A stretch of 64,000 nt of DNA from Candidatus Komeilibacteria bacterium (lineage in GTDB: Bacteria > Patescibacteriota > Patescibacteriia > UBA1558), in contig JBLYPX010000001.1 of the NCBI GenBank assembly GCA_048538235.1, forward strand, positions 136,013 through 200,012, written 5' to 3'. Under the pieces are notes generated by a model. It saw only the letters and a list, made by a program, of their open reading frames with translations, made no database searches and had not been told where the DNA came from. Within the stretch, counting starts at the first letter, position 1. Each line of letters begins with the position of its first letter. Of this stretch, positions 9,362-64,000 are shown piece by piece. The position numbers and the translations under genes are program-made.

Positions 9362-9366
9362 CAAAT

Positions 9367-9440: not shown

Positions 9441-9488
9441 CAATGAAGAGATGGTGTTAAACACTATCTCTTTTCATTTTAAATCTAA

Positions 9489-10962: not shown

Positions 10963-11039
10963 GTGAATTTTCCACAAAAAAGCAGATGTTTACCTGTTTT
11001 TTTATTTGCTATATAATAATAACCACTTGTGTATAAAAA

Positions 11040-12697: not shown

Positions 12698-12698
12698 T

Positions 12699-17863: not shown

Positions 17864-17903
17864 TTTAAACACGATCGTTGAAAACAAAATAAGGGGAGTT
17901 AAC

Positions 17904-18974: not shown

Positions 18975-18983
18975 GGAGGAAAT

Positions 18984-20027
18984 ATGAAAGTAAAAATGAG
19001 CTTAGTGCTCATGTCGTTGTTGGTGCTGATTGGCTGTTCCAAGTTTTGGGAAGACAGTCTAACTGCACCGACAAGCACGTATAATCTGGGTAATTCTCAG
19101 ATTACAGCGATAGTTTTGGGTAAGACTGCTGCTGATACCGCAAATTTTAAATCAAATATGTGGTTGAAGAGCGACAGTTCTGGCACGGAATATCGTGAGG
19201 TGCAGTTTTCCGACATATTGCGGATTACTACAATGGTGAGTGAACAGCTCTACAAGAGTAGGGTCAGCTATAACGGAATTGTACCTTTTGCGGGATTTAC
19301 CATTGCTGGTGTTGAACCAACATATTGGACTATTGATAAGGAGCAGGGTCCCTGGTTTTGGGGAGGAATTGATCCAGAAGGAAATTTCGTTCAGGATCAA
19401 AACAACCTTGCTGATACTGTCATTATTCCAATTGAGGTTTATGCAGCCAGTGGTAATAGTTACAGTTTCAACGGTACTGGTACAGATCATGACAATAGGA
19501 ATGTTCCATGGAATTCTGGTCTGAATCGTTATCGTGAGGAAATGGTAACATTACCTGGTGAGCATCGTTATGATTTTTACGGCTCCGGTATTGACTCAGT
19601 CAGAATTGGAAACACAATGATCTACGATATCAGTGGTGGATACATCAGTTTCGAAATCGTAGATTCTAATCAAGTATCTGTACTGGATGATCTGTCTGGT
19701 ATGCATGAGGTCTCTTGGCAGGATACTGCATCAGCAGATTCTGTCGCGTTGATGATCTCAGATAGATTAGGGGATAGAAATTATAACCTAATCAACCAGT
19801 CTGGCAATTGGCTTCATTCAGTTGTCATGCCGTCAGATACTTTAATATTGTTGAGAGTTGAAGCTGATAACGAATTGCAAGTGACAGGTGTTAAAGTTGC
19901 TAATACAGAACTTCATCATCTGGTCATGGTAGATTCGAGTCAGTATTGGTTCGCCTTTCGTCTTGTAGATGGAGTGGTGAGTCAGGATTCAGCTAACAAC
20001 TTTCCAAACCTTCAACTTTATCCCTAG
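18984..20027 (+). CDS. Lipoprotein of unknown function (island gene 2)
   Basis: Lipobox LVLIGC|SK. AAGGAGGA SD. GC-rich codon usage. Confidence 0.55.
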   Translation: MKVKMSLVLMSLLVLIGCSKFWEDSLTAPTSTYNLGNSQITAIVLGKTAADTANFKSNMWLKSDSSGTEYREVQFSDILRITTMVSEQLYKSRVSYNGIVPFAGFTIAGVEPTYWTIDKEQGPWFWGGIDPEGNFVQDQNNLADTVIIPIEVYAASGNSYSFNGTGTDHDNRNVPWNSGLNRYREEMVTLPGEHRYDFYGSGIDSVRIGNTMIYDISGGYISFEIVDSNQVSVLDDLSGMHEVSWQDTASADSVALMISDRLGDRNYNLINQSGNWLHSVVMPSDTLILLRVEADNELQVTGVKVANTELHHLVMVDSSQYWFAFRLVDGVVSQDSANNFPNLQLYP

Positions 20028-20036
20028 GAGGGAAAT

Positions 20037-20861
20037 ATGAAAGCATGGCAAGTTGGAACATTGGTTGCTGTAGTCGCCATTTTGTTCCTAATCACAGGAT
20101 TTAGTCTTCGAGGGTGTTCTTCATCTGATGAAGCCAAGTCCGAACCTCAGACTGTTACGCAGGATGAGGTGGGTAAGATGATTGCTCAGGCTATCGAGGA
20201 TTTTTCGAAGGAACAGTCCAAACAGATCCAATCATTGGGTTTGTCAATCGATACCCTGGGTATACGGATAGCTGAAAACAAACCAGCTCCTGTTGCAAAA
20301 CCCGCACAACATGCAAAGAAAACACCCACGAAAAAGCATGTGACGTACAAGAAGTCGACCAAGAAGAAGGCACCTGTACATCGAACGCAATCAGTGAGTG
20401 TTGATCAGTCAATGACTGAGATCTTTGCAAACAGTGAGTTTATTCCATCTCAACGCAAAACTGTTGCTGTGGCTCCTGTACAGCAACAGGTGATACGGAC
20501 CAGTGCTCCTGCTGTTCAGCAAAATGCTCTGGTGAAAACACCACCACCGCCCATTGGACAACTCAAAGTTCTTGTATCTTCGGATGCAAAGCACATCTGG
20601 GGAACTGCAACGAACTGGACATCTGGCCAGGTAAGGGTGAAGAAGGGAATTGCTTATATCCCAGCTCGCACGGGTAATAGACTGTACATCAATGGTGATC
20701 TGAAAGATAAGACCTACCTTGATGCTCAGGAAATTACCTTGGTTGCACCAAACGGAAGTCAGGTTACTCTTAATTGGAGTAATTCAGGCGTAGACGGTCC
20801 GGCAGCGAACCAGAAGAATTTGGTGTATTCGTACATGGGCGGGAATCTCAGCATTCCTTAA
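20037..20861 (+). CDS. Membrane-anchored protein with a Lys/Pro-rich linker (island gene 3)
   Basis: N-terminal TM (LVAVVAILFLITGF), a basic low-complexity linker (PAPVAKPAQHAKKTPTKKH...) and a C-terminal globular region. GGAGGGA SD. Confidence 0.5.
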   Translation: MKAWQVGTLVAVVAILFLITGFSLRGCSSSDEAKSEPQTVTQDEVGKMIAQAIEDFSKEQSKQIQSLGLSIDTLGIRIAENKPAPVAKPAQHAKKTPTKKHVTYKKSTKKKAPVHRTQSVSVDQSMTEIFANSEFIPSQRKTVAVAPVQQQVIRTSAPAVQQNALVKTPPPPIGQLKVLVSSDAKHIWGTATNWTSGQVRVKKGIAYIPARTGNRLYINGDLKDKTYLDAQEITLVAPNGSQVTLNWSNSGVDGPAANQKNLVYSYMGGNLSIP

Positions 20862-50486: not shown

Positions 50487-53400
50487 TGAATAAACGTTAT
50501 TCAAAATATATAGTCCCAGTTATCACAATCATTTTATTAATGGTTCCTTTTGCTATATTCGCTTCTACAGATTTTGGTATATCTGATGTAGATGTTGGAC
50601 TAGGGGATAATGATGTAAAAAGTATTGCAACGAATATAATAAGTATAGTTTTAAGTTTTTTGGGTATTATTGCAGTTGGTTTTGTTATTTATGCTGGATT
50701 TCTATGGATGACAGCTGGTGGTAATGCAGACAGAGTAGATAAAGCTAAAAAGATTTTAATAAGAGCGGCTATTGGTATAGTTATTATTTTATCCTCTTAT
50801 GCAATTGCTAGTTTTGTAATAAGTAGTATTAGTGGTGCTACGGGCGATGGTACTGATGGAACGGGTGGTACAAATCCTCCAGGTGGTGGCTTTGGTGGAG
50901 GAGAAGCTAATTTAATTATTAGAAATTGGCAACCATATGATGGTGCTACTGGCACAGCTAGAAATATATTAGTAAGAGTATATTTTAATAAAACAATAGA
51001 CGCGTCTTCTGTAGCAAGTAGTGATTTTACTTTTACTAATACTTCAAATAATACAGCAGTTAATTTTAATGTTACTGTTGTTGGAAGTCGTATAGATATT
51101 CAACCTTTAATTGCTTGTGAGGTTGAAGGAGTGGATTATTGTTTAGGCAATACTCAGGGTTATACAGTAAGTGTAGCTAATGGTTCAATTACATCGCTTG
51201 ATAACAAAGATTTAGTATGTACTACTGGTTGTTCAACAGATTTTGTTACTAGTGATTATATTGATGTTATGCCACCAGTTGTTTCACTGGTTAACCCACA
51301 AGATAATGATACATTTTCTGTAGCTGCTAATGTACCAATTGAAGCCCAAGCAACGGATGATAGAGGTATGGTAGCAGCCCTAACATTTTTAGCAGACAAT
51401 GAAGAAGTTTTGCCAGAGGGCACAGATGGTGCTGAGCCTTGGTTAGGATTGTTTAGTACCGCTGCATATGATGAGGGGGATAGTATAGATATTAGTGCAG
51501 TAGCAGAAGATTTAAGTGGTAATATTGGCAGATCAGGGGCAGTAGATATTCGCATACTCCCTGAGCACTGTTTTAACCAAACTAAAGATGCTGATGAAAC
51601 AAATATAGATTGTGGTGGTTCTTGTGGAGCTTGTTTAGGGGAGAGTTGTAATAGTAGTTCGGGTGTAGATAGTTGTGAACCAAATGATGCCTTGTGTGGT
51701 CAGGGAGTGTGCAATTTAGATTGCATCTGTGCTTCAGCTCCAATAATAACAAATATATCTCCAGACAATGGTGCAGTTGGTAATTATATAACTATAATTG
51801 GCGAAGAATTTGGTAGTTCAACCGGTCAGGTTGTTTTCTTAGGCAGTGCTGATTTTGGCGATGAGATTGTCTCTTCATTAGCAGGTTGTGATACAGCATG
51901 GTCACCATGGCAAGTAATTGTTGAAGTTCCAGAAGGTGTAGTATCTGGGGGAATAAAGATAATTACGAATTCAGGAAGTTTTGACACCACTTTAGATGAT
52001 AGAGGTTGGCAAGGAGATTTTACACTAAACGAAACTGTTAGACCGGGTATTTGTGGAATTACACCAGAAGCTGGCACAGCTTTAAGTACTGTTGATATAG
52101 CTGGTACGCAGTTTGACGAAAGTAAAGACAGGGTTGTTATTGGTGGTGTTAGCGTTTCTAATTCAGATATATCTTTATGGTCAAATAATAATATCACTTC
52201 CTTGGTTCCAAATTTACAACAAGGGAAAGTATCTGTTGCAGTTGGTGTGGGAGATGAATTAAGTAATCCAGTTCAATATGAAGTTGTTCCAGATATATTA
52301 GTTCCATCTATATCATATATAGAGCCAGATAATGGACCAGTTGGTACATATATTACTATTCACGGAAATAATTTTGGGTATAATGAGTCAAATGTATTAG
52401 TTAATTTTGTTAATAATAGTACTACTATCCCAGCAGATATAGATTTCCCAGAAATGTGTGGAGATTACTCTGTGGAGAATACAGAGATTGTGGTTAAGGT
52501 TCCAGAGGGTGTTACTTTAGGATTATGGAATGTAGTTGTAAATAGAGATTTGAAAGATAGCCAACCAGCAAGTTTTGATGTTAATGAAGACGTGCTGTCT
52601 CCAGGTCTTTGTTTATTAGAGCCAAATAATGGTCCAGTTGGAACTATTATTGATGCTTATGGAGAAGGTTTTGGTTCAACTGGTCAGATTTCCTTTTTCG
52701 ATAATATAATAGCCGCTATTAGTAATTGGACAGGCATACATATTGGTTCTCAAGTTCCAGCAGCAGCTAGTACTGGTCCTGTACAAGTTACATCTGGATC
52801 TGGTGGAGTATCTAATTCAATTAATTTTGCAGTTGGTAGTTGTGATGCTAATAGTTGCTCAGTGGGTGATGAGTGTTGTTCAGATGGTATTTGTCGTGAA
52901 ATTGGCTTATGTGAACAATCTCTTGGTGCTGGTGAATATATTTGGTCATTTACAACTGGTCAACAATTACCACCATTTATAGTAGAAGAAGTTTGGCCAT
53001 TATGTGATGAAGCTTGTATTAATACAATGATCGGTGTGAAGTTTAGTAATCCAGTAGATTTAGAAAGTCTGACAGATATTAGCGTAGACGTTAAACAATG
53101 TACAGATGAGAATTGTTCAGCTTTTGTTACAGAAGTTGGTTATACAGAAAATGATGTACCAGTTGGCTATTATGATGACACAAACTATATCCTAAGCATT
53201 AACCCATCTGCAAATTTAGTGCCACAAACATATTATAGGGTGGTGCTTAAATCTGGATCATTAGGAATCGTTAACACAGAAGGTGGTTATTTAGAAAATA
53301 TGAATTATTCAAGTTCAGGTGGTGAGGTAGATAGTTATTCTTGGATTTTTAGAACAGGTGTTGATGAGTGTACTTTAGATAATGTAGAAGTTTTACCAGA

Positions 53401-56400
53401 TGAACGTACTATTACTTCTCAGGAAGAAAGATTAAATATGTCTGCTTATGCATATTCTGAGCCAGATGATTGCTCTCCTCGTGGTCAAATGCTTGATCCT
53501 GCAGAATTTGCTTGGACATGGCAATCTACAAATGTAGGTACAGCAACAGTAGCCGGAACTTTGAATGAGGGAATAGTAACTCCTATTTGGGGTCATCCAG
53601 CAGATGTAAGTATTATTTCTACAGCCGACGGTGTTAGTGGTAATGCTCAAATTACTGTAGATATGGATATTCCAAGAATAGATAATATATCTCCAGATAA
53701 TGGAATGATTCAGGCTGACTTAAAAACTTATGTAACTGTACATGGAGATAATTTTGGAGACGAGCAAGGTTCTACAGTTGTTCTAGTGGGTGGCATTGAG
53801 GCAAAGATTGCAGATTGTTCAAGTGCTTGGTCAAATACACAAATAGTAATTGAAATGCCATTATCTACTAGCACTGGAGATAGAATTAAAATAATAAAAA
53901 CAGGTGGGGATGATGAATCAGATCCTTTTACTGTTAATAGTATTATTCGTCCAGCGCTTTGTAGTATAGATCCAAATTATGGAATAGAGGGAACAAGCGT
54001 TACTCTAGAAGGATATAATTTTGGGGATACACAAAATGATGGCATGGTTTTCTTTGATCAATTAGGAGTAGATAGTATAAGTAGTTGGTCAAACACTAAG
54101 ATAAAAGCATCTGTACCAGCTAATGCTGCTACAGGTCCGGTTACAGTTAATGTGTTAGGCAATGATTCAAATTCATTAGTCTTTTCTTTAGAACCATATA
54201 TTAGTGGTCTAAATCCAGACAATGGAGCAGTAGATAGTTATGTCACAGTTTACGGTGGTAATTTTGGTGACGAGCAGGGTAGCGGTTATGTATTAATTGG
54301 TGGTCGAAGAGCATATCTTGCCCCATGTTTAGGCAGCTGGTCTAATACAAGTATTATTGTTCAAGTGCCAAGTAGTTTAAGTCTTGGTAATAGGAAGGTT
54401 CAAGTTATTACACATTATGGCATTGGTAGTAATGAGGTAAATTATGAGGTAAAAGATGTTCCAGCTAATCCACTATTATGTGAAGTTAATCCTAATTGGG
54501 CTGCTAATAATGAGCAGGTTGGTTTATTAGGAGATAATTTAGGTAGAGCTCCTCGTTTATCTGATCAAATAGAAGTAGATACAGATTTGGGAGCAAGTTA
54601 CACAAATTCTTCTGGTAATTCATGCATGAGTAATAATGGTTCATATGTAAGTGGTTGTTCAAATTATTGGGTTGAGTACCAGTTCAATTTTACAGATAGT
54701 AATTATTATAATGCTTGGGCAGAAACCAGTAATTATAGTACAGATTTAACGGATCAAAGTATTTACCACAACGTTAATATATATATTGATGGCACATACG
54801 CTGGTTATTTTAGTAATATAGCTTCCCTTGATCATCAGTTTGGTGGCGTAGATTTAGGTTGGGTAAATGCTGGTGTTCATACAATTAGATATTATTGGAC
54901 AAATGATTGGTGTGGTGGTTGTAGTAATGGAACGGGGGATTCAAATATTAGGATTTACAATGTTGGTATTAATACAGGAATACCAACTAGCTACCCAGTG
55001 TTTACAAGAAACTACACAGCTTCTACTGAGGGTTGGTCAAACAGTAGTGTGTTAACACGTATAGATAGTGAAATACAGTCTGGTCCAGTTTCTGTTATTA
55101 AAGAAGTGGTTACTGGCCAGCAGTGCGCTGGCTTCCATATTGGTAGTTGGTGTCCAGGAGGCGTTTATGAAGATATTACAGAGAATATTGAAAGTAATAG
55201 TGTAGATTTTAATAAAGGATGTGTAATTGGAACAACTTCATCTCGAGAAGAAAATTATATTCCAACTGTTGCTGCTAATAGCGAAGCTGTTGGTACATTA
55301 GCAACCGATGGTACATATATCTATGGTAAGAGTTGGAGTAGTTATGATGAGTATGATGTAGTTATATCTAAGATAGGTACTGGTTATAATAATACAGTAC
55401 TGGGAGAAGACTATGGAGATTTAGCAATAGTTTCTAGCAGTATTACCATGACTTATCATCCAGATGGTTATATATACAATGGTTATTCATCAGATGGTCA
55501 TAGTTTACAGCGTATAAATGTTGCTACTGGGGTTGTAGATAACAGTGTTGTGATTACAGATGGTTTATTAAACAGAAATACTGGTAATACTTATTCAGAG
55601 GCTAGGGGTGACAACTTAGTAACCTCAGACGGAACATATATATATAATTTAGCGTTTGGAACCCATGCTTGTCCAAATAATTATTCTAGTCGCTGTTATG
55701 ATGGATTTAAAGTAAGGGTATTTGATCCAATGAATAATTGGAAGTTAGTTAGAGAGTGGGAAACAACTACAAATGGATCTTTTTATACCGATGGTATTGT
55801 AGCTGATGGTAAATATATTTACGCCATTGAGTGGGGTGGTTTACATAGAATACGTATGATGGATATTCAGACTGGTGAATATATTGCTCAGTGGATATCT
55901 GAACAAGGCAGGCCAACTGGTCAGGGTAATGATATTATTTCTGGTCAGTATGATTGGGTTAATGACAGAATATGGCTAGGTGATTTGGTTGATCATAGTA
56001 GATATCCTGGCCCAGCTTATATATATAAATATACTAGCTGTCACGACTATGACGTGAATGACATTATAATAGAGGATGAAGGTTATTGTGGAGATGGACT
56101 CATTGCTTCAGGCGAAACTTGTGATGACGGCAATACTGTAAGCGGGGATGGCTGTTCTAATGTTTGTGAGATAGAATTAAGTGATCTTCAGGCAGATATT
56201 AATTATGAGGTTGGTTGGAAATATTGGAGTAGTAATAATTGGGTCCATGTAGATTTTAGAGATACATATTCAAATCCAGTTTTGATACTAAGTCCAGTTA
56301 AACACGAAGGTGGTGACACTGCTACCTTTAGAATAAAGAATTTATCTAGTTCTGGTTTTGATTTTAGATTACAAGAATCTAATAGTCATGATGATCCTCA

Positions 56401-59400
56401 TTGTTGTGATAAAGAAGTCTATTATTTTGTAGCTGAAGCAGGTGTTTATCAATTAGAAGGCGGTATAACAATTGAAGCTATGAATACTGTTCTTGATTCA
56501 GTTACACCAAATTATACTCAGCTTCCTTATGATATTGAATTTACAGAAGTTCCTACAACATTATCTCAGGTAATTACAAGTGGTGATGGCAATGATCCTA
56601 ATTTTGATCCAAAAGGAACTATTAATTATATAAAGACAAGACAGAATAATGTTTCGGCTAATAGTTTTTATATTGCTTTAGAAACAGACACTACTTATTC
56701 AACTCATGTACCAGAAACAGTAAGTTGGTTAGCCATAACTCAAACAGATGGCAATTTAAATAATAGTTTATTTGAATCAAAAACTATTAATAATCTTATT
56801 AATAATGACACTTCAAATATTACTTTTGATAATTCTTTTGCTAGACCAACATTTTTTGCAAATAGTTTAACTATAAATGATCCAGCTCCTGGTGTTTTAC
56901 GATGGATAGCTCTAGAACCTACATCGGTTGGTGTGCGTTTTGAGAATGATGACAGTTCTATTCACGCAACTCCAGAAGATATTAATTATTTAGTTATTAA
57001 TCTACCCGAGAATATTGATCCACCAGCACCAGATACATGTGGTAATGGCGAAATTGAAGCTGGTGAAACTTGTGATAGTTGTCCAGACGATGTTGGCGAA
57101 TGTAGTGATAGTGATTTGTGTGGAAACTTTAGTTTAGACACTGGTGAAGCTTGTGATATTAGTGAAGTTGGTGATCCAATATTAGGTGGACAGACTTGTG
57201 ATTCTTTAGAAGGTTTTTCTGGTGGTAACTTAGATTGTTCTGTGAATTGTGAATTAATAACAGATGCATGTGTTATTGGTAATCCAGCAAGTAATATTTG
57301 TTTAAACACAGAGATATCTGCTGAATTTGATTCATTAATGGATCAAAGTAGCTTTGCCGGTAATGTTCATTTTGAAAAGGTCACTAATACTTGTGAGACA
57401 GGTTCAAATATTGGCAATGCGTGTGATACAGACGAAGATTGTGGTGATGGTGTTTGTGATCTAGATGTAGTAGTTAGTTATGATTTAGAGAATTTGCCAC
57501 CAAATGATTCTCAATACTCAAAGTTATATATATATCCAGAAAATGGTCTATTAGATATTAATTCTGAATACAGAGCAACAGTAAGGGGTGGAACTAGTGG
57601 TGTTCAAGATATTGAAGGTTATACTTTAGCTGCGGATTATGTTTGGCCATTCTATACTGGAGATACAGAGTGTTTAATAAGTAGAGTGGAAATTGAACCA
57701 AGTAGTTATCAATTTAATAGTGCAGATGAAATAGTTAACTTCACAGTTCATGGATATGATGAAAATGGTATTTCTGTTATAGGAGATTATTCATGGAGTA
57801 TTCAAGGTAATGCAGATTTATTAAATATAGTTGGAGGAAATACCCAGACTGTACAAGTTTCCCCAACAGATACTGGTAATGGTGAGTTAAGTTTAGAAGC
57901 TAGTGTATATGCTAGCGAAGATTCACAAGGTGTGGCTCAAGCTCCAATAGATATATTTATGTGTAATATACCGTGGAATTATGAGAATAAAACATATAAC
58001 TTTAAGACAAGATATTGTAGGGGTGAAGGTGTAAACCATGTATATAATAGTGGTTTTGAAATGGATGATAACAGCGACTTAAGACCAGATGTTTGGTTTG
58101 ATGATATCTATGATGAAGATTGGCAGGATATTTCTTTAGTAAGTTCAGATTTAGAAGGTGGTGGAAATTATGCTGTGCAAATAAATAATTTACAGGACGA
58201 TCGTTCTGTAGGAGATAGAACAGGTATTGCTTCAGGAATAATAGATGTTAAAGATGCTATCTATACTTTATCTGCTCAGATTAAGGGTGAAACTAATGGT
58301 CAATTAGCATATTTTGGTCTTAAATTTATGAATGAAAATGGTCAGGCACTTGGCGGAAACGGTGGCTACCATTATCCAGTACTTAACCACGCTTCAATAT
58401 CTGATGAATGGACATTGTATAGTGCTAGTTTTAGGCCATCTGAATTATTTACTGGTACTGAGAAGGTTCAGGTTGTATTTATTCTTGCAGGTAGTGATGA
58501 ATTAGATAAACATGTAGCCTGGATAGATAATGTTCAATTAGAGTTAGGTTCAGAAGTTAGTGTTTATGAAGAATCTAATTTATTACCATCATTAAATATA
58601 TCTCCAGATGCTGCTTCTGGTGATGAGCTGCTAAATAGATTGTTCTTACAATCTGACTACAATATTCCAGATGCCATTGGTTTAAGAGTGTTTACTAACT
58701 TTGAACACCAAGCACCAATTGTTTGGTATCAAGATAATGTTACGAATATTGGTAATCCAGCTACTATAGATGTTGGCGGTTATTCAGCATTACAAGAGGG
58801 TAGAACAACTTATGTGAATGCTGCTAATAATAGTAGTAATAATATTTATACAAACATATTTGTTTTGTCATATACAGATGGTGCTAATGCAACTACGCAA
58901 GATATATTTACTCAGATGTACGAGAATTGGACGTTCAATAGTAATATAGATTCATATTATGAGAAACAACAACTCGCTAGAGACACAAAACGTTTTGAGA
59001 ATATTGTTCAAATGTCTGAGCAATTAGACGATTATTATCAATTAAATGGTGGTTATCCTCAATTACAGGCAGGGACATATTTAGCTGGTACAACAGTTTC
59101 TGTTTGGGATTCTTGGAACGCTACTTTTGGTGCAGAGCTTGGTGGTGTGCCAGTAGATCCAATCAATGAACATGGATTATGTAATGGTGCATACGATCCA
59201 ATAACCTGTTGGAATCCAGACGATTTGCGTTATGTTTGCCCATTAAACTCCTATGTTTACAGATATGACTATGTAAATTCGGATTATTATCTATATAGTA
59301 ATTTTGAATATGAAGGGGTTGTTTGGAAGGGAGATTTTGATTTGACCATAGCTAGTAATCCGCAGTGCGATAATGTAATTTTAAACAATGGTGTTATGTC

Positions 59401-59431
59401 TTCCATTTCTCCAGCACAAAATATTGAATAA
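50486..59431 (+). CDS. Giant surface protein 2 (2981 aa): paralogous T4SS-pilin-like N-terminal module, at least 8 IPT/TIG domains, Myxococcus-type Cys-rich repeats, beta-rich regions and a CBM4/9-like domain
   Basis: N-terminus about 65% identical to the upstream protein. IPT/TIG consensus 'P.I..I.PDNG.VG.YITI.G.NFG' recurs at least 8 times. 'CGDGLIASGETCDDGNTVSGDGCSNVCE' and 'CGNGEIEAGETCDSC...' Cys repeats. 'FEMDDNSD...GNYAVQI...VAWIDNVQLE' carbohydrate-binding-module-like jelly roll. Confidence 0.65.
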   Translation: MNKRYSKYIVPVITIILLMVPFAIFASTDFGISDVDVGLGDNDVKSIATNIISIVLSFLGIIAVGFVIYAGFLWMTAGGNADRVDKAKKILIRAAIGIVIILSSYAIASFVISSISGATGDGTDGTGGTNPPGGGFGGGEANLIIRNWQPYDGATGTARNILVRVYFNKTIDASSVASSDFTFTNTSNNTAVNFNVTVVGSRIDIQPLIACEVEGVDYCLGNTQGYTVSVANGSITSLDNKDLVCTTGCSTDFVTSDYIDVMPPVVSLVNPQDNDTFSVAANVPIEAQATDDRGMVAALTFLADNEEVLPEGTDGAEPWLGLFSTAAYDEGDSIDISAVAEDLSGNIGRSGAVDIRILPEHCFNQTKDADETNIDCGGSCGACLGESCNSSSGVDSCEPNDALCGQGVCNLDCICASAPIITNISPDNGAVGNYITIIGEEFGSSTGQVVFLGSADFGDEIVSSLAGCDTAWSPWQVIVEVPEGVVSGGIKIITNSGSFDTTLDDRGWQGDFTLNETVRPGICGITPEAGTALSTVDIAGTQFDESKDRVVIGGVSVSNSDISLWSNNNITSLVPNLQQGKVSVAVGVGDELSNPVQYEVVPDILVPSISYIEPDNGPVGTYITIHGNNFGYNESNVLVNFVNNSTTIPADIDFPEMCGDYSVENTEIVVKVPEGVTLGLWNVVVNRDLKDSQPASFDVNEDVLSPGLCLLEPNNGPVGTIIDAYGEGFGSTGQISFFDNIIAAISNWTGIHIGSQVPAAASTGPVQVTSGSGGVSNSINFAVGSCDANSCSVGDECCSDGICREIGLCEQSLGAGEYIWSFTTGQQLPPFIVEEVWPLCDEACINTMIGVKFSNPVDLESLTDISVDVKQCTDENCSAFVTEVGYTENDVPVGYYDDTNYILSINPSANLVPQTYYRVVLKSGSLGIVNTEGGYLENMNYSSSGGEVDSYSWIFRTGVDECTLDNVEVLPDERTITSQEERLNMSAYAYSEPDDCSPRGQMLDPAEFAWTWQSTNVGTATVAGTLNEGIVTPIWGHPADVSIISTADGVSGNAQITVDMDIPRIDNISPDNGMIQADLKTYVTVHGDNFGDEQGSTVVLVGGIEAKIADCSSAWSNTQIVIEMPLSTSTGDRIKIIKTGGDDESDPFTVNSIIRPALCSIDPNYGIEGTSVTLEGYNFGDTQNDGMVFFDQLGVDSISSWSNTKIKASVPANAATGPVTVNVLGNDSNSLVFSLEPYISGLNPDNGAVDSYVTVYGGNFGDEQGSGYVLIGGRRAYLAPCLGSWSNTSIIVQVPSSLSLGNRKVQVITHYGIGSNEVNYEVKDVPANPLLCEVNPNWAANNEQVGLLGDNLGRAPRLSDQIEVDTDLGASYTNSSGNSCMSNNGSYVSGCSNYWVEYQFNFTDSNYYNAWAETSNYSTDLTDQSIYHNVNIYIDGTYAGYFSNIASLDHQFGGVDLGWVNAGVHTIRYYWTNDWCGGCSNGTGDSNIRIYNVGINTGIPTSYPVFTRNYTASTEGWSNSSVLTRIDSEIQSGPVSVIKEVVTGQQCAGFHIGSWCPGGVYEDITENIESNSVDFNKGCVIGTTSSREENYIPTVAANSEAVGTLATDGTYIYGKSWSSYDEYDVVISKIGTGYNNTVLGEDYGDLAIVSSSITMTYHPDGYIYNGYSSDGHSLQRINVATGVVDNSVVITDGLLNRNTGNTYSEARGDNLVTSDGTYIYNLAFGTHACPNNYSSRCYDGFKVRVFDPMNNWKLVREWETTTNGSFYTDGIVADGKYIYAIEWGGLHRIRMMDIQTGEYIAQWISEQGRPTGQGNDIISGQYDWVNDRIWLGDLVDHSRYPGPAYIYKYTSCHDYDVNDIIIEDEGYCGDGLIASGETCDDGNTVSGDGCSNVCEIELSDLQADINYEVGWKYWSSNNWVHVDFRDTYSNPVLILSPVKHEGGDTATFRIKNLSSSGFDFRLQESNSHDDPHCCDKEVYYFVAEAGVYQLEGGITIEAMNTVLDSVTPNYTQLPYDIEFTEVPTTLSQVITSGDGNDPNFDPKGTINYIKTRQNNVSANSFYIALETDTTYSTHVPETVSWLAITQTDGNLNNSLFESKTINNLINNDTSNITFDNSFARPTFFANSLTINDPAPGVLRWIALEPTSVGVRFENDDSSIHATPEDINYLVINLPENIDPPAPDTCGNGEIEAGETCDSCPDDVGECSDSDLCGNFSLDTGEACDISEVGDPILGGQTCDSLEGFSGGNLDCSVNCELITDACVIGNPASNICLNTEISAEFDSLMDQSSFAGNVHFEKVTNTCETGSNIGNACDTDEDCGDGVCDLDVVVSYDLENLPPNDSQYSKLYIYPENGLLDINSEYRATVRGGTSGVQDIEGYTLAADYVWPFYTGDTECLISRVEIEPSSYQFNSADEIVNFTVHGYDENGISVIGDYSWSIQGNADLLNIVGGNTQTVQVSPTDTGNGELSLEASVYASEDSQGVAQAPIDIFMCNIPWNYENKTYNFKTRYCRGEGVNHVYNSGFEMDDNSDLRPDVWFDDIYDEDWQDISLVSSDLEGGGNYAVQINNLQDDRSVGDRTGIASGIIDVKDAIYTLSAQIKGETNGQLAYFGLKFMNENGQALGGNGGYHYPVLNHASISDEWTLYSASFRPSELFTGTEKVQVVFILAGSDELDKHVAWIDNVQLELGSEVSVYEESNLLPSLNISPDAASGDELLNRLFLQSDYNIPDAIGLRVFTNFEHQAPIVWYQDNVTNIGNPATIDVGGYSALQEGRTTYVNAANNSSNNIYTNIFVLSYTDGANATTQDIFTQMYENWTFNSNIDSYYEKQQLARDTKRFENIVQMSEQLDDYYQLNGGYPQLQAGTYLAGTTVSVWDSWNATFGAELGGVPVDPINEHGLCNGAYDPITCWNPDDLRYVCPLNSYVYRYDYVNSDYYLYSNFEYEGVVWKGDFDLTIASNPQCDNVILNNGVMSSISPAQNIE

Positions 59432-59488
59432 AATTATATTATTATATAAATATACGGTATAATTAATAGCAAGTTAATATATAAATAT

Positions 59489-62400
59489 ATGAAAAGAAAA
59501 ATTATTACAATTATGACTGTTATGGCATTTATTTTTACTTTAATGCCACAATCATATGTTAGTGCTCAAACAATCGATCAGTGTGAGCAAGTTTTAGCAT
59601 CAGGACAACCAGAATTGTCTACTTGGGAAGATGATGCAGGAGCAACGCCTGCTAATAATTTTTATTTCATGGATAAACTGGGTGACTGGATAAAGCTCAG
59701 ACTTTTTTCTTTTACCAAGGATGCAAGAATTAATACTTTGTTAGATCAGGCACAAGAAAGAGTAGGCGAGCTTGAACGTTTACAGAGGCAGAACAATCTT
59801 AAACCTAGTTATGTTAATAGAATTGTAGATAGCTACAATAATATTATGGCAGAAGTTAGTACGAGATTATCTAATATGCAGGGCGATGGTGTAGATATGA
59901 CAGATATAATCTCTAGAGTAACAATACTAAGTGCTAAAAATAAAACTATTATAGCTGGTATTTTATCTAAGGTTTCTGCACAGAACTATAATACAATACA
60001 GTCTGCATATAATCAGTCTGGTACAGCGTTTTGTGAAGTTGTAGATAGTTGGGTTTCAAGAGAGAATCAATGTAATGATACTATTCTATTAACACAAGAG
60101 AGTTCTAATTCATTTAATAATATTGCAGGCGAGATAGCCAATGTTGGAGAAACAAGTTCTTCAATAGAAAGTTCATTTGAACAAGTTAGTTCGTATTTAG
60201 ATAGAGTGGAAAATATTAGTGTAGATATAAATAATAGTAAAGAAGATTTTAGTGGAGCTGTTAGTAGTTCTAGTTTGAGCTTAAGTGATAAAGAACAAGT
60301 ATTAAATGATAAGCTAGATGATTTTAGAGGGGATTATTTTTACCTTTTAAATAATCAACCTCAAGTAGATACTGCTATTAGATCTATCATAAGCTATAGA
60401 TTAAACGACAACCCTAGAAGTTTAGTTGCAAGAGCTAGGGCTAGCGCTGCTTTAATGGATGTTGCTTTAAACAATGCAGAAGTGGGAGCAGACATTGCAT
60501 ATATTGAAAATATAATGTCTGTTAATCTGTCTGAAGATAAAGATTTAAATGATTTATTAGATAATTTAAAGTCTGCAAAAGAAAGTAGTTTGCAAACTGA
60601 AATAAATACGCTATCTTCATTAGTTTCTTCACAACAGGATGAAATTGAAGCATTAGAAGAAAGTAAAAATGTCTGTAGGAGTTTAAAGAACGATTTTTCA
60701 GAAATATTAGACAGGTTAGATACTGGAAGATTTTCTCAGGCTAGAAATGGTGTCTTAGCTTTACAAGCTGAAGCTAGTAATTTAAATAGCACATATTTAC
60801 CAGCTTGTGGAATGATGCCAGTTATAGACACTCTTTATGATATTCTAATTAATGGTAATGCTTTGGACCCAAATAATAGTTGTAGTAGTCAATCATATAT
60901 AGATAATTATGTAGCTGAGATAGTTGCTTGGGGAGAGGATCGTTTAGCATTATGGGATACAATGTTAGATCAACACGATGGTATTGTAGATGAATTGAAC
61001 AGTCAACTAGATTCATATGAAATGATAAGTGTAAATAAGGGATCAGTTGCAACAAGTTTAGATTCACACTTTTCTTCCTATGCAAATGTTAATGCTGCAC
61101 AAGTTTCTTCAGCTGAATTAGATAGCATTCAAACTGAAATAGGAGATTTAGAAAGAAGATTAAATTCGGCTGAATCAGATGTGGTGGATTATGAAGGATA
61201 TAAGAATAATGCTAATGCGTCTTTACAGGTTGCTAATAGTTCATATGTTGAAGCGCAAACAGCTGTAAGTAAGGCAGAGTCAGAATTGCAAACAGCAGAT
61301 ACTAATGTGAAGCAGGCACAAGCCGCAGCAGATCAAGCAAGAGCAGATTACCTAAAAATAGAACAATCTTTAAATGAACTTAATACAATTAAAAACAGTA
61401 CATTATCTGAATTAAACGCTGCTAAAGATTCGCTTGATGCATTAAATACAGAAAAAGTTGATTTAGAGAAACAGATTGATACTTTAAAAGTTTCTTTAAA
61501 TAATAATTTTAGTATAGCTTCTATTAATCAAGATAACTTTCAATTGGAAGAAGAAATCTTATTGGACCTATCTGAAGATATTAATTTTGATAGAAGTGCA
61601 GTTGAACTAGAGGCTTTAGATGCAGAATTAAAAAATTTAAATGAAGACATAGTGTTAAAATCTGCAGAAGTAGATCAATTACAGTCAAATTACGACAAGG
61701 TGTTAGCAGACTATAATTCTACTTTAACAGAATACAATAATAAAGAAGACGATGTGGTTCAGGCAGATTTTGGAGTATATGCAACTACGCAGGTTTATAC
61801 ACAAAAAGAAAGTGCATATAATTCTGCAGTATCTGGTTTGAATACAATCTCTAACAATTTAAATAGTCTTCAAGCTAGTTATGATGCAGCTGTATCAGAT
61901 TATACAGAAGCTGTTGTTTTAAGAGATATTATTAGTAGTGATTTAGATAATAAGAATAATGAGTATAATAATGCGGTTGCTAAAGCTGTGAAACTTGAAG
62001 TTATTAGACAGGAACTAGATTCGTTCATTACAGATAAATTTGATAGCACAGTCAGTAATTATAGAACTAGCGTTGATTCTTTAGGAGTTTTAAACAATGA
62101 TTGGAAAACTGTTGCCTTTGAATATAATGAAATAGCAGATAATATTGCAGACTTAAGAACTACTATGAATGGAACAAATCTTGCTAATATTAGAACTGAG
62201 CTTAATAGCATGAAGACATTAGCGGGCAACTTGGAAACTATGGTTGAATATAATATGCCAGCTCAACAAATTAGTAATCAATTAGATACAATAGATAGAT
62301 TAGTAAGTATGAGAATGCTTGGACAAGCTAGGATAGATAATATCAAAGCATCGGTTCAAACGAGTGTGGTAAATTTACAGAATATTACTTGTTCCGAAGC

Positions 62401-62917
62401 TCAACCATTATATAATCAAGGTATAACAGATATTTGTAATAACTTCTCTATTGGAGATTATCTTAATACTTGTGATGTTATAAACAATTTAGAAATTCAA
62501 ATCGTAGATACTTGTCAGTTACAACCTGTAAATAATTGTGGTAATACAATCGTGGATGATGGAGAACAATGTGATGACGGTAATAAATTATCTGGCGATG
62601 GTTGTAGTGCATTATGTCAAAGTGAAATAACATCATATTGTGGTGATGGCCGCATTCAAAGACCAAATAGTTTTGGTGTGAATGAAGAATGTGAGAATGT
62701 ACCAGCAAATAATGAAGACGGTGATGGTTGTTCATCACAATGTACGAATGAAGTTCAAGCAGTTTGTGGTGATGGTATTTTACAACAACCAAATAGTAAT
62801 GGTTTTAGTGAACAGTGTGATGATGGTAATAGGTTTGCTGGTGATGGCTGTAATAACCTATGTCAGCTAGAAAGAGGTTCACAAAAAACTATAAACATTA
62901 GAAGAACAATTCCATAA
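59489..62917 (+). CDS. Secreted giant coiled-coil protein (1142 aa) with three C-terminal Myxococcus-type Cys-rich repeats
   Basis: Signal peptide MKRKIITIMTVMAFIFTLMPQSYVSA|Q. Heptad-like helical low-complexity sequence for about 950 aa. C-terminal 3x 'CG.G....GE.CDDGN...GDGC...C..E'. Confidence 0.6.
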   Translation: MKRKIITIMTVMAFIFTLMPQSYVSAQTIDQCEQVLASGQPELSTWEDDAGATPANNFYFMDKLGDWIKLRLFSFTKDARINTLLDQAQERVGELERLQRQNNLKPSYVNRIVDSYNNIMAEVSTRLSNMQGDGVDMTDIISRVTILSAKNKTIIAGILSKVSAQNYNTIQSAYNQSGTAFCEVVDSWVSRENQCNDTILLTQESSNSFNNIAGEIANVGETSSSIESSFEQVSSYLDRVENISVDINNSKEDFSGAVSSSSLSLSDKEQVLNDKLDDFRGDYFYLLNNQPQVDTAIRSIISYRLNDNPRSLVARARASAALMDVALNNAEVGADIAYIENIMSVNLSEDKDLNDLLDNLKSAKESSLQTEINTLSSLVSSQQDEIEALEESKNVCRSLKNDFSEILDRLDTGRFSQARNGVLALQAEASNLNSTYLPACGMMPVIDTLYDILINGNALDPNNSCSSQSYIDNYVAEIVAWGEDRLALWDTMLDQHDGIVDELNSQLDSYEMISVNKGSVATSLDSHFSSYANVNAAQVSSAELDSIQTEIGDLERRLNSAESDVVDYEGYKNNANASLQVANSSYVEAQTAVSKAESELQTADTNVKQAQAAADQARADYLKIEQSLNELNTIKNSTLSELNAAKDSLDALNTEKVDLEKQIDTLKVSLNNNFSIASINQDNFQLEEEILLDLSEDINFDRSAVELEALDAELKNLNEDIVLKSAEVDQLQSNYDKVLADYNSTLTEYNNKEDDVVQADFGVYATTQVYTQKESAYNSAVSGLNTISNNLNSLQASYDAAVSDYTEAVVLRDIISSDLDNKNNEYNNAVAKAVKLEVIRQELDSFITDKFDSTVSNYRTSVDSLGVLNNDWKTVAFEYNEIADNIADLRTTMNGTNLANIRTELNSMKTLAGNLETMVEYNMPAQQISNQLDTIDRLVSMRMLGQARIDNIKASVQTSVVNLQNITCSEAQPLYNQGITDICNNFSIGDYLNTCDVINNLEIQIVDTCQLQPVNNCGNTIVDDGEQCDDGNKLSGDGCSALCQSEITSYCGDGRIQRPNSFGVNEECENVPANNEDGDGCSSQCTNEVQAVCGDGILQQPNSNGFSEQCDDGNRFAGDGCNNLCQLERGSQKTINIRRTIP

Positions 62918-62936: not shown

Positions 62937-63680
62937 ATGTTTGAAGATTTACAATCAGATCAACAGGCTGGTGTACCAAAACCAGAACCAGTAAATACAC
63001 CTAAACAGCCACCAATGGCGCCAAAGCCAGAACAGGCAGGGGAGATAGAAGACATCTTAGCAGATGTTGATTCTTCAGCTCCTTCAGTAACTCCAAAACA
63101 ACCTCCAATGCCAGCACAGCCTCCTGTGCAAGATATTGGTCCAGCTCAACCTTTAACAGATTTACCAGGCGCTGAAGTAATGGATAAGAGTAAACGTTCA
63201 GGCGGATCAAAGAAATTATTCTATTTAGTTGGAATTGTTGTGGTAGCCGCTATCGTTATTATTGGTGTTATCAAATTCACTTCTTCTGCAAGTTATGATG
63301 AGTATGAAAACTTTGTAACAGAGCCAGTTGTTAATAATCAAGTAACAGATAATACAGAAGATACAACCGAGCCAGAAGTAATAGATGAGCCAGAAGTTGT
63401 TGATGAGGTTGTAGAAAAAGATATAGTAGATGATGATGGCGATGGTATAACTAATGAACAAGAATTAGCAATTGGAACCGATCCATTTAATCCAGATAGT
63501 GATAATGATGGTTTATTTGATAAAGAAGAGGTGGTAACTTATGGAACAGATCCACTAAATGAAGACTCAGATGGCGATGGATATTTAGATGGTGCTGAAG
63601 TAAAAGCAGGATATAATCCAAGCGGCCCAGGCGAATTATTGAAATTACCACCATTAGATAATGGAACAAATAATAATTAA
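62937..63680 (+). CDS. Bitopic membrane protein: Pro-rich N-terminal region, one TM helix, acidic linker, thrombospondin type-3-like Ca-binding repeats
   Basis: PKQPPM repeats. TM 'LFYLVGIVVVAAIVIIGVI'. 'DDDGDGITNEQE...DPFNPDSDNDGLFDKEE...DPLNEDSDGDGYLDGAE' are Dx[DN]xDGxxD motifs. Confidence 0.55.
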   Translation: MFEDLQSDQQAGVPKPEPVNTPKQPPMAPKPEQAGEIEDILADVDSSAPSVTPKQPPMPAQPPVQDIGPAQPLTDLPGAEVMDKSKRSGGSKKLFYLVGIVVVAAIVIIGVIKFTSSASYDEYENFVTEPVVNNQVTDNTEDTTEPEVIDEPEVVDEVVEKDIVDDDGDGITNEQELAIGTDPFNPDSDNDGLFDKEEVVTYGTDPLNEDSDGDGYLDGAEVKAGYNPSGPGELLKLPPLDNGTNNN

Positions 63681-63685: not shown

Positions 63686-64000
63686 ATGTTTACAGATAAC
63701 AAAAACCAAACAACAACTGGTAGTCAGTTAATAGATAATGCTGGTCCTCAGGCTAGTCAACCAGCTGGTAATAGTATGACTGGCGAGATATATACTATGC
63801 CAAGAGCGGATGGTCCAGTAAAACCAGCTAAGGCTAAAAGTTCTCCAAAGCTTATGTTTATCATAATAGCTATTGTTATTATTGCTATTGTTGGAGTTGG
63901 TTTTTGGTTCTATTCAACAATGACTGTAGTGCCAGAAGATAATCTATTAATAGATCAAAATTTTAATACAGATAATTTAATTCCTCCTATTGTTGATGAA
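63686..64000 (+). CDS. Partial ORF (runs off window end): low-complexity N-terminal region, then a TM helix; probable paralog-type bitopic envelope protein
   Basis: ATG at 63686 in an open frame to the window end. TM 'LMFIIIAIVIIAIVGVGFWFY'. Confidence 0.35.
   Translation, partial: MFTDNKNQTTTGSQLIDNAGPQASQPAGNSMTGEIYTMPRADGPVKPAKAKSSPKLMFIIIAIVIIAIVGVGFWFYSTMTVVPEDNLLIDQNFNTDNLIPPIVDE

Follow-up and report, generated by a model that had tools for sequence, protein, structure and literature searches.

A probable rod-shaped surface protein of Candidatus Komeilibacteria with DUF5667 and DUF4215 modules, encoded beside giant adhesin-like proteins

The window analysed in this work (the whole stretch of 64,000 nucleotides from a Candidatus Komeilibacteria bacterium) contains a gene for a protein of 1142 aa, which is 100% identical to P0001, a "MAG: DUF4215 domain-containing protein" of Candidatus Komeilibacteria bacterium. 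The gene is real and its product is predicted to be a secreted, almost wholly helical rod ending in three Cys-rich repeats, i.e. a variant of the stalked surface proteins that is confined to one lineage and so far uncharacterised. The best explanation, which we favour with modest confidence, is that this is a rod-shaped surface protein of Komeilibacteria, consisting of a base, a stalk and a head, which serves as a spacer or partner in an attachment assembly of giant adhesins. The base of this extracellular, disulfide-stabilised rod would be the DUF5667 module, lying within a conserved Cys-containing helical domain that follows a Sec signal peptide; its stalk would be a fast-evolving pair of very long helices of variable length, most likely arranged as an antiparallel hairpin; and its highly conserved head would comprise a four-Cys helical subdomain, three DUF4215 repeats and a short invariant tail. 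The features of the gene and its product, all on the + strand, are as follows:

59489..62917, + strand: complete ORF including the stop codon, with an ATG start, for the DUF5667/helical stalk/DUF4215 protein of 1142 aa
59489..59566, + strand: predicted signal peptide, aa 1-26, with cleavage predicted between VSA and QT (read from the sequence)
59567..61078, + strand: conserved all-helical N-terminal domain, aa 27-530, with six invariant Cys (C32, C182, C195, C396, C440, C465), from invariant columns and AF2 helices
59639..59917, + strand: DUF5667 domain (PF18915), aa 51-143, with the invariant core G51, P54, Y59, F60, D62, G65, W67, F73, S74
61112..61501, + strand: long helix 1, aa 542-671, putative first arm of an antiparallel coiled-coil hairpin (AF2 DSSP)
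61502..61579, + strand: helix break, aa 672-697, putative hairpin tip (AF2)
61580..62167, + strand: long helix 2, aa 698-893, putative return arm and continuation (AF2 DSSP)
62180..62524, + strand: C-terminal helical region with the four-Cys subdomain (C968, C983, C995, C1009, invariant in eight homologues)
62537..62872, + strand: three tandem DUF4215/TIGR02232 Cys-rich acidic repeats, aa 1017-1046, 1051-1088 and 1093-1128, from the Cys pattern
62873..62914, + strand: conserved C-terminal tail ...I-x-I-x-x-x-x-P (RGSQKTINIRRTIP), with I1135, I1137 and P1142 invariant in eight homologues

The N-terminus (MKRK-IITIMTVMAFIFTLM-PQSYVSA, followed by QT) shows upon reading the n, h and c regions expected for Sec signal peptides together with a V-x-A site, and the Ala at position -1 of the predicted cleavage site is invariant in eight homologues. 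No LPXTG, TM helix or lipobox is recognisable after this site, and the C-terminus ends as ...NIRRTIP, without LPXTG or TM helix. The three nearest homologues retain every one of the 22 Cys residues of the protein; the six of the N-domain are invariant across eight N-domains and the 16 C-terminal ones in eight sequences. On the basis of its sequence, the protein is predicted to be exported and to have its disulfides formed. In the AF2 model, which is a monomer run based on only four sequences and is of low confidence at aa 1-76 and 958-1142, DSSP assigns helix from about aa 30 to 1010, i.e. about 980 aa. The preliminary description of this DNA was thus right in proposing a secreted, stalk-like protein with about 950 aa of helical sequence, as indicated by the predicted Sec signal peptide and the AF2 helices. 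It had also described this region as a coiled-coil stretch, which holds for its helical nature but not for its uniformity, as the very long uninterrupted helices, two in number, are limited to about aa 542-893 and the conserved N-terminal domain occupies aa 27-530. The helical region is thus no single uniform coiled coil; its N-terminal part is a conserved domain, made up of DUF5667 and further helices, and what follows is a probable hairpin. The further suggestion in that description of an S-layer-like nature is unsupported. A self-assembling S-layer or lattice protein would be in accordance with a large secreted protein of a monoderm CPR cell, encoded among envelope genes and with TSP3 (Ca-binding) neighbours; however, no SLH or other S-layer/anchoring match was obtained in Pfam or NCBIfam at E <= 0.01, the length variation within the family would not easily suit a fixed lattice, and S-layer proteins do not typically have 22 invariant Cys and an elongated coiled coil. 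We regard this reading as highly improbable.

To date, the protein is known only from Candidatus Komeilibacteria (Patescibacteria/CPR). Only about 7-8 family representatives with the full N-domain are present among 1.84 billion (1.84e9) proteins, all members with a named taxon being Komeilibacteria, and in a scan of GTDB species the full N-domain was seen in three loci only. Family members vary from 458 to 1292 aa (2.8-fold), with both ends retained and the middle varying in sequence as well as in length. The identity is 77-83% in the repeats (even in a homologue that is 37% identical overall), 56-78% in the DUF5667 region and 24-40% in the arms.

The DUF5667 domain is detected at aa 51-143 with a PF18915 score of 30.2 bits versus a gathering score of 27, and the family homologues score 21-36 bits for it. 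About 190 other proteins match the DUF5667 part only (profile positions ~20-150), which is always N-terminal in them, and in nearly all of the matched proteins the match begins at residue ~25-60, directly after a signal peptide or TM helix; in the 1142-aa protein it likewise directly follows the signal peptide. Examples of such proteins from Patescibacteria are a 677-aa cupredoxin-headed protein of Portnoybacteria (OGZ35828.1 cluster) and the Kazal-headed proteins. Common to these and the 1142-aa protein are the signal peptide, the core G-x-TP-x4-FYF-x-D-x2-GDW-x-KL-x-LFSF, and a long helical segment followed by a small Cys-containing extracellular C-terminal head; in other CPR DUF5667 proteins the linker is long, charged and helical, and the head is a small Kazal or cupredoxin domain. 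However, the 1142-aa protein differs from them in having an N-domain extended to about 500 aa with six Cys, a much longer helical middle which is probably a hairpin, and a DUF4215 array as its head, and its gene is locked beside those for giant T4SS_pilin-anchored proteins, whereas other DUF5667 genes are found in varied contexts. When modelled alone by AF2, the N-domain is all helical (pLDDT 59.5), and fold comparison of this low-confidence model returned nothing at E <= 1e-3. No papers on DUF5667 were found in the literature searched.

At the other end of the protein, TIGR02232 matches in three stretches with 91.7 bits (cut-off 20.8; E 1.7e-26) and PF13948 (DUF4215) with 31.4 bits (versus 27), and each repeat shows a four-Cys pattern with an acidic DDGN...GDGC core, all 12 Cys being invariant in eight homologues. 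The three tandem Cys-rich repeats noted earlier are therefore real and far above chance, with a span of nt 62537-62872 in place of the 62516-62865 given then, and the claim that giant protein 2, encoded upstream, carries a repeat of the same type is confirmed by a TIGR02232 match at its aa 1866-1897 (47.2 bits, E 1.4e-12). In a six-frame scan of the whole window, the motif GDGC-x(2-4)-C is confined to these two genes. Among proteins of this kind (TIGR02232 "myxo_disulf_rpt"/PF13948), human pappalysin-1 (PAPP-A; PDB 8a7d, 7y5n, 7ufg) has a copy of the repeat with a solved structure in its central part. The repeats described here match PAPP-A residues 865-922 (E 8e-5) and may adopt the same disulfide-bonded extracellular fold, although the AF2 pLDDT of the repeat region in the 1142-aa protein is only 25-38. 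They share with PAPP-A-type repeats the pattern C-x(n)-C-DDGN-x3-GDGC-x3-C, repeat 1 being 63% identical to residues 865-897. Among the DUF4215 proteins recovered, no other has DUF5667, the long helices, the four-Cys helical subdomain or the C-terminal tail; in a search with the C-terminal profile the four-Cys subdomain was not recovered in other proteins, the matches covering the repeats only.

It had been proposed from the shared repeat that the two neighbouring proteins take part in a common interaction, such as a disulfide-stabilised docking. However, at least 2808 proteins carry DUF4215 arrays, their sources being Proteobacteria, Deltaproteobacteria, Patescibacteria and eukaryotes, and because the module is promiscuous its presence in both genes need not mean that their products interact. 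Further, the repeats of the 1142-aa protein show 50-60% identity to the repeat of giant protein 2 and 50-63% to that of human PAPP-A and, being equally close to both, they give no sign of specific pairing. The sharing of the repeat is thus by itself a weak argument for the proposed interaction, and it is the conserved synteny from which the idea of a partner of the giant protein gains support. The evidence for the latter comes from the genes surrounding that of the 1142-aa protein, which are as follows:

47565..50486, + strand: giant protein 1, 973 aa, with a T4SS_pilin N-terminus, Big_5 domains and an NHL/Vgb-like beta-propeller
50486..59431, + strand: giant protein 2, 2981 aa, upstream of the 1142-aa gene, with T4SS_pilin, Big_5, Big_7, six TIG and one DUF4215 repeat
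54512..54907, + strand: beta domain of giant protein 2, aa 1343-1474, homologous to an insert in the homologue P0007
56081..56176, + strand: DUF4215 repeat of giant protein 2, aa 1866-1897 (TIGR02232)
62937..63680, + strand: membrane-anchored TSP3 protein, 247 aa, with three TSP3 repeats, 19 nt downstream of the 1142-aa gene
63687..64000, + strand: first part of the following conserved gene, which runs past the end of the window (product of ~540 aa in relatives), with an N-terminal TM helix

The stop codon of giant protein 1 overlaps the start of giant protein 2, whose N-terminus is a VirB2-like T4SS_pilin membrane hairpin. From giant protein 1 to the ~540-aa gene all genes lie on one strand with gaps of -1, 57, 19 and 6 nt, and no terminator-like site is present between them in the window. 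The 247-aa ORF contains three TSP3_bac repeats (E 1.3e-21), and the ~540-aa orthologues, which have no Pfam match on record, show upon reading of their sequences two pseudopilin-like "RD-x-R-x-x-D-I...IP-x-DP" modules and TSP3-like DTDEDG repeats. The order T4SS_pilin giant(s), 1142-aa-type gene, TSP3, ~540-aa membrane protein, ybeY is observed in four loci (L001, L004, L006 and L007), and also in L005 and L008 as far as the contigs reach. This gene order is kept at all homologue loci with assembled flanks, down to homologues that are only 26-37% identical, and a TSP3 gene lies immediately downstream at each locus with an annotated downstream flank, which bears out the earlier proposal of one cluster of surface-protein genes including the TSP3 neighbour. 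Orthologues of giant protein 1 (~990 aa) are found upstream in L001 and L004, and the giant neighbours keep their DUF4215 repeat(s) wherever sequence is available (L001/L009, L004, L007/L011, L010).

The distribution of DUF4215 arrays across phyla and eukaryotes, and the fact that the repeats are no closer to those of the neighbour than to those of PAPP-A, could also be explained if the 1142-aa protein is functionally independent of the giants and merely carries a common extracellular repeat, its adjacency to them being a lineage-specific accident of gene order. A TATAAT box at 59458-59463, 26 nt upstream of the ATG, could in this regard be the gene's own promoter. However, the maintenance of the gene order at such low identities, the short same-strand gaps, and a second module common to P0007 and the giant protein argue against independence, which we consider quite unlikely. 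Likewise, a signal peptide without a retention signal on a long helical secreted protein, and weak Foldseek matches that include components of Tc and umbrella toxins (E 0.05-0.6), might suggest an effector, or a helical toxin that forms pores, which this bacterium, presumably an episymbiont, secretes onto its host cell. However, no toxin domain is detected in Pfam or NCBIfam, the toxin-like fold matches are not significant, the most conserved part of the protein is a disulfide-rich repeat array typical of matrix/adhesion proteins, and the gene is embedded in a cluster for adhesin-like membrane-anchored proteins, making a toxin very unlikely. A pilus-tip protein of the VirB5/TraC type was also considered because of the VirB2-like pilin domains of the neighbours; no VirB5/TrbJ match was obtained in Pfam or NCBIfam at E <= 0.01.

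With regard to the stalk, pLDDT is 75-92 within the long helices (about 80-90 in long helix 1, which shows 24-40% identity to the homologues), and they are separated by the non-helical aa 672-697 (pLDDT <50), with which the acidic motif FQLEEEILLDLSEDINFDR (aa 684-702, nt 61538-61594) overlaps. The best Foldseek matches in the PDB are intramolecular antiparallel coiled coils, viz. MukB, SMC, JetC, Rad50 and PrgA, with low TM-scores of 0.07-0.20. The lengths of the two arms co-vary across homologues (141/133, 140/131, 54/40, 190/165, 193/176 and 193/186), which is only suggestive, as the alignment inside these hypervariable arms is unreliable. Based on the AF2 model, the Foldseek matches and the co-varying arm lengths, the long helices most likely fold back on each other to give an antiparallel coiled-coil hairpin, with a length of about 20 nm. 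However, monomer prediction can artificially fold back a homo-oligomeric parallel coiled coil, and the AF2 run was made on a monomer with only four sequences. If the hairpin is an artefact of this kind, then the protein would instead be a parallel homo-oligomer (dimer or trimer) forming an extended fibre, as M protein and other fibrillar adhesins do, with its DUF5667 end at the cell and its Cys-rich head at a distance of at least 100 nm. Such a fibre would agree with the linear appearance of other DUF5667 proteins (base, linker and a small C-terminal head) and with the 458-aa family member P0009, which consists of base and head only. However, the two long helices are separated by a conserved break, whose flanks are gained or lost together among homologues (in P0003 both are shortened, with 87 vs 93 aa lost), and in P0007 a globular, beta-rich insert is located at the alignment columns of the break, as is typical of a hairpin tip; the fibre is thus unlikely, if still a serious alternative. 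The insert in P0007 has its homologue in giant protein 2, at aa 1343-1474 (E 2e-8). The acidic motif, in turn, sits at the N-terminus in P0004, and it is therefore a poor fit to a simple role in display at the tip of the hairpin.

Of the coiled-coil proteins that resemble this stalk, PrgA of the Enterococcus faecalis plasmid pCF10 (PDB 6z9l) is a surface-exclusion protein with an antiparallel coiled-coil stalk of ~40 nm, encoded beside the adhesin PrgB (bioRxiv 10.1101/2020.06.18.156562). The Foldseek match to 6z9l has an E-value of 1.7e-3 and a probability of 0.98 but a TM-score of only 0.14-0.20, and no sequence homology was detected between the two proteins. Their likeness should thus be interpreted as a functional analogy only: both are secreted monoderm surface proteins dominated by a long antiparallel coiled coil (predicted in the present case), both genes adjoin that of a large adhesin with which they have an apparent shared evolutionary history, and in P0007 a globular domain is located at the putative hairpin tip, similar to the CAP domain in PrgA. 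However, the 1142-aa protein has no CAP/protease domain in Pfam and no LPXTG anchor, its tip is only a 26-aa loop, and its conserved globular parts are at the base; conjugation genes are absent from the window.

The similarity to SMC, MukB and Rad50 is likewise limited to the long intramolecular antiparallel coiled coil. The weak NCBIfam matches for SMC, ASRP and Rad50 on aa 533-894, the position of MukB and SMC as top Foldseek matches, and the presence of ftsA and ftsZ downstream in L006-L008 could be taken to indicate a cytoplasmic SMC/Rad50-like chromosome or division protein. However, these matches cover the coiled coil only and reach 15-36 bits versus cut-offs of 300-1087, there is no ATPase head, hinge or P-loop domain in Pfam, and the protein, which is Cys-rich and predicted to be exported, carries a signal peptide together with 22 invariant Cys in repeats of extracellular type, so that this identity is effectively refuted.

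The 1142-aa protein is thus probably part of a cell-surface attachment machinery rather than anything exotic. It would be produced along with two giant adhesin-like proteins, whose membrane anchor is a VirB2-like pilin hairpin, and with two TSP3-repeat membrane proteins. Inside this surface assembly it most likely acts as a structural spacer or partner, and the assembly would let the ultra-small cell attach to a host cell or a surface. A more far-reaching joint interpretation, which we offer as speculative and rather doubtful, is that the five co-linear genes may encode a new Komeilibacteria-specific host-attachment organelle. In it, the 1142-aa protein would be a PrgA-like hairpin stalk at whose tip binding modules can be exchanged: some lineages would have the acidic peptide motif there, and another a beta-sandwich taken over from the giant adhesin. 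The Cys-rich head of the protein would bind Ca and attach to the repeat of its own type in the giants. On a wider scale, stalked display proteins throughout the CPR would form one family, sharing DUF5667 as the base next to the cell and differing in their heads (Kazal, cupredoxin or DUF4215).

A large part of bacterial diversity falls within the Patescibacteria (CPR), which are believed to lead a life attached to host cells. The known CPR contact candidates are type IV pili and T4SS with VirB2-like pilins (PMC12857230, PMC12102498), other contact molecules being largely unknown, and no PrgB-like adhesins were found according to PMC12102498. If the protein described here is merely one more uncharacterised surface protein, then the value of these results will lie only in better annotation. 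Beyond this, the locus provides a conserved and testable candidate set, consisting of giant adhesin-like proteins anchored by a VirB2-like hairpin and a stalked, Cys-rich partner, and it offers a first structural reading, viz. base, stalk and head, for DUF5667.

The open reading frame at 59489..62917 (+) starts with ATG and encodes a protein of 1142 aa, which is 100% identical to the NCBI record 'DUF4215 domain-containing protein [Candidatus Komeilibacteria bacterium]' from an 860-kb contig. Its N-terminus, as read from the sequence, consists of MKRK, a hydrophobic stretch and PQSYVSA/QT, and it has the form of a predicted cleavable Sec signal peptide, whose Ala at position -1 is retained in 8 of the 8 homologues. 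A match to DUF5667 is seen at aa 51-143 (30.2 bits vs 27, Pfam), AlphaFold2 (AF2) predicts a helical protein from about aa 30 to 1010, and the Cys-rich repeats that follow belong to TIGR02232 'myxo_disulf_rpt' (Pfam PF13948, DUF4215), which matches in three stretches with 91.7 bits against a cut-off of 20.8. The preliminary description of a long helical protein ending in three Cys-rich repeats was, in this respect, accurate, and its repeat coordinates agree to within about 20 nt with the limits given by the Cys pattern. The features referred to below are as follows.

Features of the 1142-aa protein
aa 542-671: first long helix (AF2; helices pLDDT 75-92)
aa 672-697: non-helical, low-confidence break (AF2)
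aa 698-893: second long helix (AF2; helices pLDDT 75-92)
aa 1017-1046, 1051-1088 and 1093-1128 (nt 62537-62872, + strand): three DUF4215 repeats, delimited by Cys pattern

The same type of repeat had also been noted in the adjacent giant protein 2, and a single TIGR02232 repeat is indeed present there (aa 1866-1897, 47.2 bits); when the window is translated in all six frames, the GDGC-x(2-4)-C core is confined to these two genes. However, a profile of the C-terminal module matched at least 2808 proteins at E <= 1e-6, all of these matches spanning the three repeats only, and the carriers of DUF4215 include Proteobacteria, Deltaproteobacteria, Patescibacteria and eukaryotic transcriptomes, some of them with astacin, C-type lectin or collagen domains. 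Further, the repeats of the 1142-aa protein show 50-60% identity to that of its neighbour vs 50-63% to the copy in human PAPP-A. Because the carriers are this numerous and the PAPP-A copy is similarly close, the sharing of the repeat should by itself be taken as weak sequence evidence of a partnership. In the literature searched, DUF5667 was unmentioned, DUF4215 was mentioned only incidentally, and the papers on PAPP-A structure leave the repeat unnamed. The two neighbours could, on this basis, be functionally unrelated proteins that merely carry a common repeat, but this reading is unlikely, and its likelihood is lowered by the gene order, which is kept in every homologue locus with flanking sequence, including those whose homologues are only 26-37% identical.

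Gene order conserved among the homologue loci
1: protein of ~990 aa with T4SS_pilin and propeller
2: giant protein of ~3200-3800 aa with T4SS_pilin and TIG domains
3: homologue of the 1142-aa protein
4: TSP3 protein of ~250 aa
5: protein of ~535 aa
6: ybeY and dgkA, followed by ftsA and ftsZ in part of the loci

In the window, the genes of this cluster lie on one strand with intergenic distances of -1, 57, 19 and 6 nt, the stop codon of giant protein 1 overlapping the start of giant protein 2, and no terminator-like sites are present in the gaps between them. A TATAAT sequence is found at 59458-59463, within the 57-nt gap after the giant protein 2 gene and 26 nt 5' of the ATG; it may be an internal promoter, in which case co-transcription with the giants would not be guaranteed. 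In giant protein 1 (973 aa, 47565-50486, +) and giant protein 2 (2981 aa, 50486-59431, +), the N-terminus is a two-helix membrane hairpin of the VirB2-like T4SS_pilin type (PF18895), which is followed by large, adhesin-type ectodomains that carry Big_5, Big_7 and six TIG domains or an NHL/Vgb-like propeller, and no T4SS core genes (VirB4 and related) occur in the window. The TSP3 repeats reported downstream were likewise found, the 247-aa ORF containing three TSP3_bac repeats (Pfam). The next gene (63687-64000, +) is cut at the window end; its orthologues of ~535-542 aa (L001:14189-15817 and L007:13354-14949, in two homologue loci) contain an N-terminal TM helix, TSP3-like DTDEDG repeats and two modules with a pseudopilin-like 'RD-x-QR-x-xDI...ALxxY...IPxDP' pattern, without a recorded Pfam match. 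In L006, L007 and L008 the surface-protein cluster is located directly upstream of ybeY-dgkA-ftsA-ftsZ-nrdR, a region that the window stops short of. The cluster in L006 (JGI 3300045909 contig, 1-13646) is fragmented, with the homologue in pieces of 536, 164 and 108 aa and the giant in at least 9 pieces, due to either pseudogenisation or assembly frameshift errors.

One or two copies of DUF4215 are retained in the giant neighbour throughout the lineages for which its sequence was available. In addition, the homologue P0007 contains an insert (aa ~660-790) that is homologous to aa 1343-1474 of giant protein 2 (54512-54907; 29% identity over 139 aa, E 2e-8), and this common beta domain has no Pfam match. 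This homology suggests an exchange of modules between the two gene families. The kept gene order, the short same-strand gaps, the retention of DUF4215 in the giants and the sharing of a module between P0007 and the giant thus support a functional partnership of the 1142-aa protein with the giants.

The AF2 model of the protein (4 sequences) has a mean pLDDT of 63.8, and its best Foldseek matches in the PDB, viz. MukB, SMC, JetC, Rad50 and enterococcal PrgA (6z9l, E 1.7e-3), are intramolecular antiparallel coiled coils, whose low TM-scores are as expected, since these are long flexible rods. The numbers of residues on either side of the break co-vary across the homologues (141/133, 140/131, 54/40, 190/165, 193/176 and 193/186, in an arm alignment that is unreliable), with P0003 having lost 87 and 93 aa on the two sides, and the insert in P0007, a beta-rich element of ~110-130 aa, is located at the break columns. 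The co-variation in arm length and this insert are two independent comparative observations that agree with a hairpin, and the two long helices are, as modelled, likely to form one. A parallel homo-oligomeric fibre, in which the helices would instead pair between subunits, is plausible, if a good deal less probable. In contrast, the matches to SMC-like proteins should not be interpreted as indicating a cytoplasmic SMC-like protein, a reading with little or no support and scarcely any probability, as they reflect coiled-coil composition and the ATPase head is absent. A PHROG tape-measure match (E 3.5e-7, aa 700-965) is similarly attributable to coiled-coil composition, the flanks being housekeeping genes and not prophage. 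At the putative hairpin tip, an acidic amphipathic motif of 19-22 aa, FQLEEEILLDLSED (FQ[LM]E[ES]EI[IL]LDL[ST]ED-x2-FDR), is present in the 1142-aa protein (aa 684-702, 61538-61594) and in its homologue P0002, and it is seen at L004 10109 and 10217 and at L001 12059. This motif is missing from P0003, occurs in two copies immediately after the signal peptide in P0004, and was not found in other proteins of the window or of loci L001-L004.

A search with the full-length protein retrieved just 4 close homologues and a word-index search with the N-domain (aa 27-530) alignment 1 homologue, the family becoming visible only in an exhaustive HMM search with a 487-position N-domain profile against 1.84 billion representatives. 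In that set the N-domain is covered in only about 7-8 proteins (P0002, P0004-P0008 and the short P0009); those with a taxon name are all Komeilibacteria, and every one scanned combines DUF5667 with DUF4215. About 190 further proteins match the DUF5667 part only, and in them it always directly follows a signal or TM segment at the N-terminus. When one genome for each GTDB species was scanned for the pattern, the full N-domain was found in 3 loci only, and DUF5667 alone in Portnoy-, Campbell- and Saccharibacteria. An AF2 model of aa 27-515 (8 sequences) reached a pLDDT of only 59.5, and this low-confidence model had zero PDB matches at E <= 1e-3 (Foldseek), while the N-domain profile matched PDB sequences only at E >= 0.06 (syntaxin).

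Identity to the closest homologue amounts to only 61%, and synonymous sites are therefore saturated. In the 8-member alignment both ends are kept in all members, viz. the signal peptide, C32 and DUF5667 at the N-terminus, and at the C-terminus a module of ~200 aa comprising a 4-Cys helical subdomain, the three repeats and a tail I-x-I-x4-P. The middle varies from nearly nil in P0009 (458 aa) to very long in P0004 (1292 aa), and in P0006 it contains tandem low-complexity expansions.

Identity to the three closest homologues
DUF4215 repeats: 77-83%
DUF5667 region: 56-78%
two long helices (arms): 24-40%

Among the close homologues none of the 22 Cys varies, and the six N-domain Cys are likewise invariant in 8 of 8 N-domains. 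Due to this invariance, and to the conserved ends and variable middle, the sequences point to a protein that is extracellular and oxidised, with constraint on its ends and a middle that resembles a spacer. Of the interpretations offered earlier, a stalk and a cluster partner are thus favoured, the latter by synteny and module sharing, disulfide docking is hypothetical, and an S-layer protein has little or no support and is very improbable. No LPXTG, lipobox or TM helix that could retain the cleaved protein on the cell was found in it. A secreted toxin, also with little or no support, is improbable.

The protein would be exported by Sec and then oxidised to about 11 disulfides, forming an elongated rod that makes specific contacts through its conserved N- and C-terminal modules, while the variable hairpin would set a distance or display a tip element. 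It would work in a surface assembly alongside both TSP3 membrane proteins and the giant, adhesin-like proteins with their VirB2-type anchors, plausibly for host or surface attachment. By motif resemblance, the acidic DDGN...GDG loops and the neighbouring TSP3 proteins point to a possible Ca2+ dependence. Among functional analogues, PrgA of pCF10 comes closest; it is a hairpin coiled-coil stalk protein, which is encoded beside the adhesin PrgB and has co-evolved with it (bioRxiv 10.1101/2020.06.18.156562). However, since the protein lacks the CAP domain, LPXTG and sequence homology, its membership in the PrgA family is excluded. Patescibacteria have an essential T4SS with VirB2-like pilin arrays (PMC12857230, PMC12102498), and as no PrgB-like adhesins were found in a survey of 3,035 of their genomes (PMC12102498), the pilin-anchored giants may fill a PrgB-like role.

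The window, with ~32% GC, tRNAs and, around the cluster, the housekeeping genes mfd, pth, der, an LCP-family protein gene, lepB, hisS, parAB and topA, is chromosomal DNA of a Patescibacteria/CPR MAG. Elsewhere in it, between a DUF4012 protein and a Wzy/glycosyltransferase cluster, four consecutive ORFs (17171-20861, +; 230, 356, 347 and 274 aa) have zero Pfam matches at E <= 1e-5, and GC at 18001-20000 is 0.419 vs about 0.30-0.34 nearby.

The DUF5667 proteins examined from other CPR follow one plan, in which a signal peptide and a common core (G-x-TP...FYF-x-D-x2-GDW-x-KL-x-LFSF) are followed by a highly charged helical stretch of several hundred residues and a small C-terminal Cys-containing head, namely a Kazal domain in L013 and L016 and a cupredoxin domain in L012 and L017. 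Their sequences suggest that base, stalk and head may constitute a general display architecture of the uncharacterised DUF5667 family. The 1142-aa protein, which is uncharacterised and restricted to its lineage, combines two DUF families in an enlarged version of the base, stalk and head with a DUF4215 head. It is thus a variant among stalked extracellular proteins and does not represent a system of a new category.
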